From contig JAYENX010000026.1 of the NCBI GenBank assembly GCA_034722435.1, positions 1 through 14,486 of the forward strand: DNA of 14,486 nt, in the 5' to 3' direction. Made by a program: the position numbers and the translations under genes. The notes beneath the pieces were generated by a model. The model saw only the letters and a program-made list of their open reading frames with translations, did not search any database and was not told the DNA's origin. Of the stretch, positions 11,879-14,352 are shown piece by piece (the stretch's first letter is position 1; each line of letters opens with the position of its first letter). Source of the stretch: Nanobdellota archaeon. Lineage in GTDB: Archaea > Nanobdellota > Nanobdellia > Woesearchaeales > JAHWHD01.

Positions 11879-11945
11879 TTTTGTTGGTGGTTTAGATTGT
11901 GGTTGATTATTTCAGTTCTATTTACTACTTACTAGGAATGCTTTT

Positions 11946-11960
11946 CGAAACATTTAAATA
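11946..11960 (+). promoter_or_regulatory. Consensus BRE-TATA promoter, possibly driving a precursor that includes tRNA-His
   Basis: CGAAACA-TTTAAATA; no TATA-like box directly upstream of the tRNA at 12225. Confidence 0.7.
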
Positions 11961-11982
11961 CTTTAATAATTTAACTTATTTT

Positions 11983-12042
11983 ATGATTAAACAAATCGAG
12001 GCTAAGGCCCTATCCTGGGCTGACTGTATTCATTGTAAGTAG
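11983..12042 (+). CDS. Putative 19-aa leaderless peptide MIKQIEAKALSWADCIHCK (CxxC)
   Basis: ATG 22 nt after the TATA box, the same spacing as other leaderless genes here. Too short to be sure; could instead be a non-coding leader. Confidence 0.3.
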   Translation: MIKQIEAKALSWADCIHCK

Positions 12043-12100
12043 TCCGAGTTTTCTTAATTATTTAATTTATGCTGATTGTAATTTTTTTGATTGTAATATT

Positions 12101-12210
12101 CAAAAACCGCTATGTTCACTTGCTGTAATTTCTATTTTGACGAATACAGCATCAAGGCAGTCTTATGATTATTGGATTAGTTCGCTGGCCAATACTGGCA
12201 GCGGTTTTTG
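12101..12210 (+). ncRNA. Putative structured RNA (three-way junction; divergent 5S rRNA is one hypothesis)
   Basis: Perfect 11-bp terminal helix CAAAAACCGCT/AGCGGTTTTTG; arm TGCTGTA/TACAGCA (12121-12127/12145-12151); arm with a UUCG-capped hairpin TATTGG-A-TTAG-TTCG-CTGG-CCAATA (12170-12194). Confidence 0.45.
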
Positions 12211-12224
12211 TGTTCTATGTAAAC

Positions 12225-12360
12225 GCAGTAGTAGCATAATGGTTAGCGCAAGAGCTTGTGGGAATTCTGCAGAAAGTTCTATCTTTAGTAATCAAAGATT
12301 ACTGGGACTTTATAAATCAGGGATTTTAAATGAGTTTGAGTTCGAATCTCAGCTACTGCT
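12225..12360 (+). tRNA. tRNA-His(GUG) with a canonical 37/38 intron (12262-12274) and a second ~50-nt insertion in the variable region (~12281-12330)
   Basis: Acceptor stem GCAGTAG/CTACTGC; D arm GCAT-AATGGTTA-GCGC; anticodon stem AGAGC/GTTCT; anticodon GTG at 12258-12260; T arm TTGAG-TTCGAAT-CTCAG; BHB-type central helix TTGT/GCAG; CCA not encoded. Confidence 0.88.
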
Positions 12361-12366
12361 TTTTTT
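12360..12366 (+). terminator. Oligo-T tract after tRNA-His
   Basis: Run of 7 T starting at the discriminator position; typical of archaeal terminators. Confidence 0.5.
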
Positions 12367-12371
12367 AACCA

Positions 12372-12392
12372 ATGGAGGTACAGAAAAATGAA
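12372..12392 (+). repeat. Direct repeat copy 1 (RBS plus start codon)
   Basis: ATGGAGGTACAGAAAAATGAA; 20/21 identical to 13065-13085. Confidence 0.8.
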
Positions 12393-12430
12393 TAAAATAA
12401 AAACAGAAAAAACGAAAATAAATAGTTTGA

Positions 12431-12991
12431 GTGGTAGTTCCTTACTTGCCAAGGTTAGTCAGGGTATTCATTGTTATCAATAAAGATTTCTTAGATGCAA
12501 ATCCTTATGTGAGAAATGAGATTGCTGATCTTTACACTGAAATTTATAATGCTTCGCCATGGAATGAAGATTGGACTAAAGAATCTGCTTTGAATGAATT
12601 GCTTGAGGTTGAGCAAAAGCAAGGTTTTGCTGGAGCAGTGGCTAGAGATCAAGAGCTTGTAGCTTTTTCATGGGGCTATAAAGTTCAGTCGGAGAATACT
12701 GCTAGAGTTGACTTTAGGAAGATTAGGGCGAAGTTGGAAATGGTTGGTCTTGATCCTGAGGATGCTTTTTACGGAGCTGATACTGGAGTAAGGATTGATT
12801 ATAGGAAAAACGGTATAGGTTCTTTAATATTGAAAGAAAGAGCTAAATCTACTGATGCTGGTGTTGTACTCTTTCGGACATTGAATCCGCAAATGTTGAG
12901 AATCTATAGGACAGCTCTTGGGAAGGAAATTTTTTCGTTTCTTGAAGAAAGTTCTTACAAAGGAGGGCGAGTCTATGTTTTTAAAAAATAG
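12431..12991 (+). CDS. GNAT-family N-acetyltransferase (true start uncertain; possibly frameshifted)
   Basis: LYTEIYNASPWNEDWTKESA N-terminal pattern; acetyl-CoA motif A GVRIDYRKNGIGSLIL; the only SD-led ATG (12388) is out of frame. Confidence 0.75.
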   Translation: MVVPYLPRLVRVFIVINKDFLDANPYVRNEIADLYTEIYNASPWNEDWTKESALNELLEVEQKQGFAGAVARDQELVAFSWGYKVQSENTARVDFRKIRAKLEMVGLDPEDAFYGADTGVRIDYRKNGIGSLILKERAKSTDAGVVLFRTLNPQMLRIYRTALGKEIFSFLEESSYKGGRVYVFKK

Positions 12992-13064
12992 TTTTTATTT
13001 TTTATTTTTGTATTTGTACTTATATTTAGAATTTTTAATAACATTTATAAACATAAAACTAACT

Positions 13065-13085
13065 ATGGAGGTATAGAAAAATGAA
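13065..13085 (+). repeat. Direct repeat copy 2 = hisS RBS and start codon
   Basis: ATGGAGGTATAGAAAAATGAA; TTTATAAA at 13044-13051 upstream. Confidence 0.8.
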
Positions 13086-14352
13086 ATTACAAAGAGCTAA
13101 AGGGACAAGGGATTTTAATCCTGAAGAGAAGATTATGAGGAATAAAGTTGTAGATGTTCTTAGAGAGGTTTTTGAGTTGTTCGGGTTTCCACCGTTAGAG
13201 ACTCCTTTAATTGAAAGGACTGATGTATTGGCAGCCAAGTACGCAGGCGGTGCAGAAATTTTGAAAGAAATGTTTCAGTTAACTGATCAGGGCGGACGAA
13301 AGTTAGCTTTAAGGTATGATCTTACAGTTCCTTTTTCAAGATATGTGGGTATGAATCCTACAGTTAAAATGCCTTTCAAACGGTACCAGATAGGTCGAGT
13401 TTTTAGGGATGGGCCTATAAAATTAGGTAGGTATAGAGAATTTTGGCAGTGTGATGTAGATGTGATGGGTTGTAATAAAATGACAGCTGAAGTTGAACTT
13501 CTTAATCTTGGCGTGATGGCTTTTAAAAAAATTGGTCTTAAAGTTATAATTTCTGTGAATAATAGGAAAGTTTTAGACGGCATTTTGGACGCTTTTGGTA
13601 TATCTGATGATAAGAAAGTAGAAATTATACTTACTATTGATAAAATAAAGAAGATTCCTAGAAAGGACCTTATTGCCGAGCTTAAACAAAAAGGTGTTAA
13701 GGATGTTAATAAGCTTCTTAAGATTTTTGAGGTTGAAGGAACTAATAAAGAGAAGATTGATTTTTTACTTAAATTTGTTAAAACTGAAACTGGTAAACAA
13801 GGTTTGGAAGAGGTGGCGCAGGTTTTCAAGATTGTAAAGAGTAAAGATGTTGTGTTTAATCCTGCACTTGCACGTGGTTTAGCTTATTATACTGGTATGG
13901 TCTATGAAGCGTTTATGAAAAATTCAGATTTTAAATCAAGTTTAGCTGGTGGTGGCAGGTATGATAAGATGATTGGAGATTTTCTAGGTACAAAGAAGAT
14001 TTTCCCGGCAGTAGGTTTGTCTTTCGGATTAGAACCGATAACTGAAATGTTAAAATTGAAAAATCAAGAGATCGCTAAAACTGTGACTGAGATTTTTGTT
14101 GTTCCTATTAATACTTTAAATGAATGTATGAAAATTGTTTCTGATTTGCGTAAGCAAGGGGTGAAGACTGAGATTGATATCATGGGTCGAGGTATTAGCA
14201 AAAATTTGGACTATGCCAATTATTACAAAATTCCTTATGTTTTGATTGTTGGTGATGATGAAGTAAAGAAGAATAAGGTTCAGTTAAAGAATATGGTCAC
14301 TGGTGAACAGAAGCTTATTAGTCTGGCTGAGGTTGTGAAAGTTTTAAGATGA
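13081..14352 (+). CDS. hisS: Histidine--tRNA ligase (eukaryote-like motif 2), 423 aa
   Basis: KGTRDF, LRYDLTVP, motif 2 FRDGPIKLGRYREFWQCDVD, ARGLAYYTG, GGGRYD, motif 3 GLSFGLEPI, C-terminal anticodon-binding domain. Confidence 0.98.
   Translation: MKLQRAKGTRDFNPEEKIMRNKVVDVLREVFELFGFPPLETPLIERTDVLAAKYAGGAEILKEMFQLTDQGGRKLALRYDLTVPFSRYVGMNPTVKMPFKRYQIGRVFRDGPIKLGRYREFWQCDVDVMGCNKMTAEVELLNLGVMAFKKIGLKVIISVNNRKVLDGILDAFGISDDKKVEIILTIDKIKKIPRKDLIAELKQKGVKDVNKLLKIFEVEGTNKEKIDFLLKFVKTETGKQGLEEVAQVFKIVKSKDVVFNPALARGLAYYTGMVYEAFMKNSDFKSSLAGGGRYDKMIGDFLGTKKIFPAVGLSFGLEPITEMLKLKNQEIAKTVTEIFVVPINTLNECMKIVSDLRKQGVKTEIDIMGRGISKNLDYANYYKIPYVLIVGDDEVKKNKVQLKNMVTGEQKLISLAEVVKVLR

Follow-up and report, generated by a model that had tools for sequence, protein, structure and literature searches.

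The gene at 12225-12360 on the forward strand of the window, the 14,486-nt stretch of archaeal DNA analysed here, has the form of a tRNA-His(GUG) gene and is interrupted by a 13-nt intron at 37/38 and by 51 nt of extra DNA between nucleotides 43 and 44. With a probability of roughly 0.5, it is best read as a redundant hisS-linked paralog, decaying or at least dispensable, that would carry an unspliceable insertion. This reading is based on the canonical copy found elsewhere in the genome, the lack of G-1:C73, the lineage-specific nature of the insert, the absence of a BHB path for its removal, signs of relaxed constraint and the rearrangement of the locus. In the proposed sequence of events, the gene would be the hisS-linked member of a tRNA-His(GUG) pair, and the insertion would have arisen in the lineage of the window's own genome (G000), exactly between nucleotides 43 and 44 and without a BHB to direct its removal. 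It would then remain unprocessed and probably be disabling, in a redundant copy already made atypical by C-1/U73. We infer that the 51 nt stay in the RNA and that this copy's function in translation is fading or already gone. Taken together, the sequence features suggest that a decaying spare copy is more likely than a new kind of multi-intron tRNA.

Host genome, gene structure and the 13-nt intron

The host of the window is a tiny brine archaeon, with an archaeal SSU rRNA, one EndA gene and RtcB in the assembly. The genome measures 1.30 Mb at 33% GC and is 94.5% complete, the window being its contig C26. Relatives of the HisRS encoded in the window at 13081-14352 are annotated as Woesearchaeota/Nanoarchaeota, and its homologs P0002, P0004 and P0005 showed 78%, 70% and 67% identity, respectively. 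Profile searches returned EndA (PF01974) with 101.9 bits and RtcB (PF01139) with 566 bits; the single EndA, encoded on G000:C58, is 176 aa long, and the N. equitans alpha subunit and the M. jannaschii alpha4 enzyme are closest to it. In this 94.5%-complete genome, Rfam detected only 10 tRNA genes and ARAGORN, with introns allowed, 15. Most tRNA genes of G000 escape standard finders, and nearly all of them are interrupted.

Four of the genomes used for comparison (G001, G002, G113 and G122) are flagged as unpublished. The intronless ortholog, its C-1/U73 state, the 10-position comparison and the three-intron canonical copy rest on G001, and the canonical copy with a 59/60 intron rests on G002, while G113 and G122 contribute one alignment row each. 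Contig G001:C92 is identical to the public GenBank record JAHWHD010000099.1 across the compared stretch, where the intronless ortholog can be read.

An origin of the 51 nt through misassembly or a chimera was considered, since the sequence comes from a metagenome-assembled genome and palindromes rich in AT are able to mislead assemblers. A Logan contig of 15,305 nt at a depth of ~25 covers 11900-12700 and reproduces this stretch with 0 differences and no alternative joint seen; it stems from the probable source run and is thus not fully independent of the assembly. Against this match, an artefact appears highly improbable.

A tRNA-His(GUG)-shaped gene had been recognised in a preliminary description of this DNA, and each sequence feature reported there was recovered at its coordinates. 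The Rfam tRNA model matched 12225-12360 with 34.2 bits (cut-off 29). ARAGORN made no call on the gene by default and called tRNA-His(gtg) when introns were allowed. All features lie on the forward strand. The 5' exon (12225..12261), delimited by the Rfam and tRNA-His model alignments, shares 85% identity with the G001 ortholog across 41 nt; it contains the 5' strand of the acceptor stem (12225-31), followed by U8/A9, the D arm (12234-49), the 5' strand of the anticodon stem (AGAGC, 12251-55) and the anticodon GTG (12258-60), and it extends to G37 of the anticodon loop. Position -1 (12224) holds C, and the gene thus does not encode G-1. Behind the intron (12262..12274), A38 and the 3' strand of the anticodon stem occupy 12275..12280 (GTTCT, nt 39-43, at 12276-80, with a G30·U40 pair). 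The unspliced variable region between GTTCT and the T stem strand TTGAG (12336-40) spans 55 nt (12281-12335). The 3' exon (12332..12360), 96% identical to G001 over 24 nt, starts with the variable loop GAGT (12332-35), which has 4 nt as in the aligned tRNA-His genes, and in the cloverleaf reading continues with the T arm (12336-52) and the 3' strand of the acceptor stem (12353-59). It ends in the discriminator U73 (12360), C73 being absent.

Directly abutting the gene end, U73 and six further T form a T7 run (12360..12366). Oligo-T stretches of this kind terminate archaeal transcription, and this one would presumably act as a terminator. The universal tRNA positions (U8, A14, G18G19, U33, G53, T54-C56, A58 and C61) are all intact in the window copy, together with 20 of the 21 stem pairs, so that the cloverleaf with its GUG anticodon has the A12·C23 mismatch in the D arm as its sole exception.

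The canonical 13-nt intron proposed at 37/38 (12262-12274) proved to be a genuine BHB intron. Its central helix of 4 bp, TTGT (12256-59) with GCAG (12269-72), consists of two Watson-Crick and two G·U pairs and is flanked by two 3-nt bulges, GG|G (12260-62) and AA|A (12273-75). Cuts are predicted after G37 and before A38, the outer helix being the 5-bp anticodon stem. Excision would restore the 7-nt anticodon loop UUGUGGA and the 5-bp stem AGAGC/GUUCU, matching the intronless G001 ortholog (loop CUGUGGA, stem AGAGC/GCUCU), and the splicing enzymes EndA and RtcB are encoded. By its geometry and the enzymes present, the 13-nt element is an ordinary intron of the EndA/RtcB type. Unlike the BHB-like site at 43/44 treated below, it stands above chance, as does the tRNA itself.

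For comparison within the order, a tRNA-His covariance model was built from six intronless genes of the order and searched against 151 genomes. Introns at 37/38 occurred in 17 of the 23 intron-bearing tRNA-His genes extracted from the order (Woesearchaeales-type); most of them end in ...GCAGA(A/G/C)|A opposite CTGT, and 13-nt mini-introns are among them. The intron of the window shares with them the splice sites, the YTGT/GCAG helix and the GG|N and AA|A bulges, and it equals the 37/38 intron of G007 in size (13 nt). The 9-mer TTCTGCAGA recurs in G001, a genome of the same genus, within the 37/38 intron of its canonical tRNA-His. No notable difference from the 37/38 introns of the order was seen; the intron of the window sits in a C-1/U73 paralog and not in a canonical G-1:C73 gene.

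Content of the 51-nt insertion and splicing tests

In 29 of 29 aligned tRNA-His genes the variable loop measured 4 nt, its third base being G in 26, and the syntenic ortholog in G001 has the 4-nt loop GGGT. Since the relatives have loops of 4 nt and GAGT directly precedes the T stem of the window copy, the extra DNA was delimited as a 51-nt insertion between nucleotides 43 and 44 (12281..12331). It was absent from the G001 ortholog and from the 29 other aligned tRNA-His genes of the order. None of these 29 genes has an intron in the variable region, theirs occupying the 37/38 and 59/60 positions and, in a single gene, the D loop. A conserved variable arm of 10-24 nt, as in class II tRNAs, was not found either: the region measures 55 nt unspliced here and 4 nt in every relative.

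Both hairpins noted earlier (12287-12303 and 12309-12330) are present in the insert, as is the box TTTATAAA at 12309-16. By eye, an imperfect tandem duplication GGGAYTTTA(T)AAAT was seen, with copies starting at 12304 and 12320, which the repeat search did not report; its second copy overruns the insert by 1 nt, to 12332. The duplication at 12304-12332 (GGGACTTTATAAAT / GGGATTTTA-AAAT) creates two alternative 3' BHB-like partners for one 5' site. A C or D box was not seen by eye inside the insert. The fold of the insert alone was unremarkable (z = -1.06), and the whole precursor folded better than shuffles (z = -2.84), partly through its tRNA helices.

A second copy of the insert was not found in G000, where matches reached at most 14 nt. 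Against 60 relatives the matches were likewise short, with one of 21/21 in G036, upstream of a tRNA-Ser gene. At that locus (L005, G036:C1, 1410-1640), two partial repeats of the tRNA-Ser(GCU) 5' end (CCGAGATCGCATAC) were observed upstream of the gene itself, each followed by a different hairpin of 17-19 nt and then by GGTCGC. One of these hairpins is the 21/21 match to window positions 12285-12305, which may reflect a shared hairpin module or chance.

For the splicing tests, all pairs of cut sites were scored for BHB geometry, with a 4-bp central helix, 3-nt bulges and flanking helices. A path was called strict when each step had four central pairs and a flanking helix of 2 bp or more; this is looser than the bona fide introns of G000, whose central helix has four pairs and whose outer helix measures 5 bp or more. 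The scoring upheld the earlier statement that no strict BHB removes the whole extra sequence in one step. None of the (p,q) pairs restoring a loop of 4-5 nt had a 4-bp central helix. At the junction 12280|12332, which restores GAGT, the strands AGTT and TTAA would need to pair, and the alternative shifted by one base fails as well. The best one-step candidate was 12286/12337 (loop ATCT), where ATCT/GAGT gives three of four central pairs, two of them G·U.

The proposal of two to three introns with ordered splicing was not borne out. No strict one- or two-step path leaving a 4-5-nt loop exists in the real insert, while dinucleotide shuffles contained such a path in 22% of cases for one step and in 69% for up to two steps, and the insert is absent from relatives. 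One strict path of three steps does exist and is contrived; relaxed paths, with three of four central pairs, are also available. These shuffle frequencies mean that BHB-like motifs are uninformative in such an AT-rich context and that the real insert is no richer in them than random sequence.

The same applies to the BHB-like site described for a 43/44 intron (12281-12311; AGTT/GACT). The site is present as reported, but in 36% of dinucleotide shuffles a site at least as good arose at this 5' junction, which places it at chance level. The strand AGTT at the 5' junction 12280|81 pairs with GACT (12306-09) or with GATT (12322-25). Excising 12281-12311 leaves a loop of 24 nt, and the sister site, created by the tandem duplication, removes 12281-12327 and leaves 8 nt. 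Through an hBH motif (TTTA/TAAA, with a 4-bp outer helix), 12315-12332 would be excised, leaving 6 nt in combination with the first site. In sum, BHB geometry, a motif better than chance and a same-site intron in relatives were all lacking for the insert.

Three other models were examined and rejected: a split GGGT loop (GGG...T), inspected by hand, the ARAGORN model with a 44-nt intron at 38/39 and a 24-nt variable arm, and nested introns. In each case no 4-bp central helix was found at the required sites.

The hisS-linked copy and the canonical tRNA-His gene

A second, intact tRNA-His(GUG), whose existence had been named in the preliminary description as part of the grounds for regarding the window copy as a pseudogene, was found at G000:C13:5871-5980. 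It was the best match of the tRNA-His model in G000 with 71.4 bits, the window copy reaching 35.1 bits. The C13 gene encodes G-1 and C73, has 66% GC with GC-rich stems, and contains a single 36-nt BHB intron at 59/60 (TTCA/TGAA), whose outer helix is the T stem (5 bp). The 59/60 intron type ending in TGAAAG|T recurs in G001, G002, G014, G026 and G149. With its identical anticodon, the C13 gene makes the window copy redundant, and the histidine codons of G000 are probably read by the C13 tRNA-His.

Orthologs of the C13 gene are present in both G001 and G002. The canonical ortholog in G001 (G001:C85:10039-10189) has three introns (D loop, 37/38 and 59/60) compared with one in G000, and the hisS-linked copy has no intron in G001 compared with two inserts in G000. 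As judged from these gene pairs, intron content is turning over quickly within the genus.

The window copy and its G001 ortholog carry C-1 and U73, while the other aligned tRNA-His genes carry G-1 and C73 in 29 of 29 cases. Thg1 (PF04446) was not found in the 94.5%-complete G000, and the G-1:C73 expected of a HisRS substrate, whether encoded or Thg1-added, was not found for the window copy. The C-1/U73 paralog would either be a substrate that does not depend on G-1 or not serve HisRS as a substrate.

The order of genes in G001 (Lit-family gene, tRNA, hisS) is the same as in the window; the G001 tRNA (L047, G001:C92, 2246-2318) is intronless and lies 48 nt upstream of hisS, and the HisRS proteins of G001 and G000 are 70% identical. 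Searches with the exact 24-nt pattern of the 3' exon gave no match in JGI metagenome contigs and, in GTDB genomes, returned the G001 record only. In G002, which belongs to the same family and has a 76%-complete assembly, hisS was not found. Across the order, a tRNA-His gene no more than 100 nt upstream of hisS and on the same strand was observed in at least 19 of ~120 genomes, which looks like a conserved tRNA-synthetase gene pair. Given this common upstream placement, the hisS-linked position appears to be old and the C-1/U73 state a peculiarity of the genus.

The window copy differs from the G001 ortholog at 10 of 72 positions, and 8 of the 10 differences go toward A/T in the window copy. 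At 45.8%, the exon GC of the window copy is below that of the G001 ortholog (54%) and of other G000 tRNAs (53-66%). One of the G000 differences breaks the pair 12-23 (A·C), and three pairs are kept by one-sided change, namely two G-C to G·U and U5·G68 to U5-A68. On this comparison, the AT drift and the broken 12-23 pair point to relaxed constraint on the branch leading to G000. The pair 11-24 shows a compensatory double change (C-G versus U-A), which argues for selection on the fold during part of that branch. The perfect cloverleaf in G001, despite a HisRS only 70% identical, argues that the gene family has a function.

The locus itself is rearranged in G000. A 693-bp cassette, absent from G001, is located between the tRNA gene and hisS and is bracketed by a direct repeat of ~26 nt from the hisS start region (12366-12392 and 13059-13085; AAC..ATGGAGGTA.AGAAAAATGAA). 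The ORF of the cassette (12431-12991) gave a weak GNAT match below the Pfam cut-off.

Rival readings and comparison with known systems

The splicing alternative holds that the gene is a functional multi-intron tRNA-His, in which a broad-specificity EndA would remove the 51 nt as a single relaxed intron or as two to three introns in order, the product being a 72-nt tRNA with the loop GAGT (or ATGT/AAGT). We regard it as possible, although the balance of the evidence tilts away from it. Because nearly all tRNA genes of G000 are interrupted and intron content differs between G000 and G001, the insert is a priori likely to be an intron: multi-intron tRNA genes abound in G000, intron turnover between the two genomes is fast, and EndA and RtcB are encoded. 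The alpha4-type EndAs of DPANN archaea have, moreover, been linked to relaxed motifs and disrupted tRNA genes (PMC5829648), and such sites are at hand in the BHB-like pairings at 12280|81, the hBH motif at 12315-12332 and the relaxed paths. The intact tRNA invariants, the position of the insertion exactly at the 43/44 structural boundary, which leaves the ortholog-like loop GAGT, and the still working-type BHB of the 13-nt intron fit splicing as well and speak against decay. These points are set against the lack of any strict path of two steps or fewer, the three-step path being contrived, and against the variable loops of 6, 8 or 24 nt left by the best sites, which are matched by equally common sites in shuffles. 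Relatives lack an intron in the variable region, and the missing G-1/C73, the canonical copy and the AT drift count against a working tRNA. The narrower proposition, that an alpha4-type DPANN EndA would remove the 51 nt without a canonical BHB, whether in a single relaxed step or in several steps of fixed order, is rated as unlikely.

Still less probable is that the RNA retains the insert in a non-decoding role, for example as a tRNA-like RNA with a two-hairpin extra arm that would bind HisRS or act as a regulatory element beside hisS, or that the gene serves as a promoter carrier for the G000-specific cassette through TTTATAAA at 12309-16. A C-1/U73 paralog has been kept next to hisS in two species whose HisRS proteins are 70% identical, and the full-length RNA folds better than shuffles; however, the G001 ortholog manages without the insert, which by itself is not unusually structured. 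With regard to a promoter, the duplicated segment offers no separate TATA box for the cassette ATG at 12388, and TTTATAAA, occurring about once per 5 kb in G000, is mildly notable within 51 nt. Against this, the T7 run begins ~20 nt past the start predicted from the box, and GGGAC, the sequence upstream of the box, does not resemble the AAACA found in both hisS promoters. An unspliceable insertion in a redundant copy is preferred over both alternatives.

If the insert were spliced after all, it would be an archaeal variable-region tRNA intron without a BHB, challenging the need of EndA for this motif. A 43/44 intron in a working, G-1-less U73 tRNA-His paralog beside a canonical tRNA-His would then widen both the substrate range of archaeal splicing and the identity rules of tRNA-His. 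Under the decay reading, the gene would provide an example of a redundant tRNA gene decaying in a genome with rampant intron gain, together with a warning that chance BHB-like motifs occur in a third or more of random AT-rich sequences. The more durable result is that the genus keeps two tRNA-His genes, one canonical and one hisS-linked with C-1/U73, and claims on histidine identity or tRNA completeness in G000 must weigh both.

Multiple-intron tRNA genes of Thermoproteales and of ARMAN/DPANN archaea were reportedly described by Sugahara et al. in 2008 and Fujishima et al. in 2011. The window gene resembles these systems in combining a 37/38 intron with a second, non-canonical interruption (PMC4033280, PMC5829648), and the hosts likewise possess EndA and RtcB and have most of their tRNA genes disrupted. 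In those systems, however, the cloverleaf is restored through a BHB, hBH/HBh' or BHL motif present at every intron, whereas the second insert here has none, lies in the variable region and is missing from relatives.

A likeness also exists to the nev-tRNAs of nematodes, in which long, class II-like variable arms occur on class I identities (PMC3333845): removing only 12281-12311 would leave a 24-nt variable arm with a hairpin, as in the ARAGORN model. Unlike in nev-tRNAs, the arm is not conserved, the anticodon stem of the ARAGORN model has a C·A mismatch, and the host is an archaeon.

With respect to identity, some alpha-proteobacteria and protists have only a G-1-less tRNA-His with A73 and a co-adapted HisRS. 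The window copy shares the missing G-1:C73 with them, but here a canonical gene coexists and the discriminator is U73.

The gene resembles tRNA pseudogenes and degenerating duplicates in several respects: it is redundant, has lost the main identity element, contains a mismatch in a stem, has drifted toward AT and is disrupted by an insertion. It differs from them in its intact universal positions and 20 of 21 stem pairs, and in having a G001 ortholog with a perfect cloverleaf, from which it follows that any decay would be recent and confined to G000.
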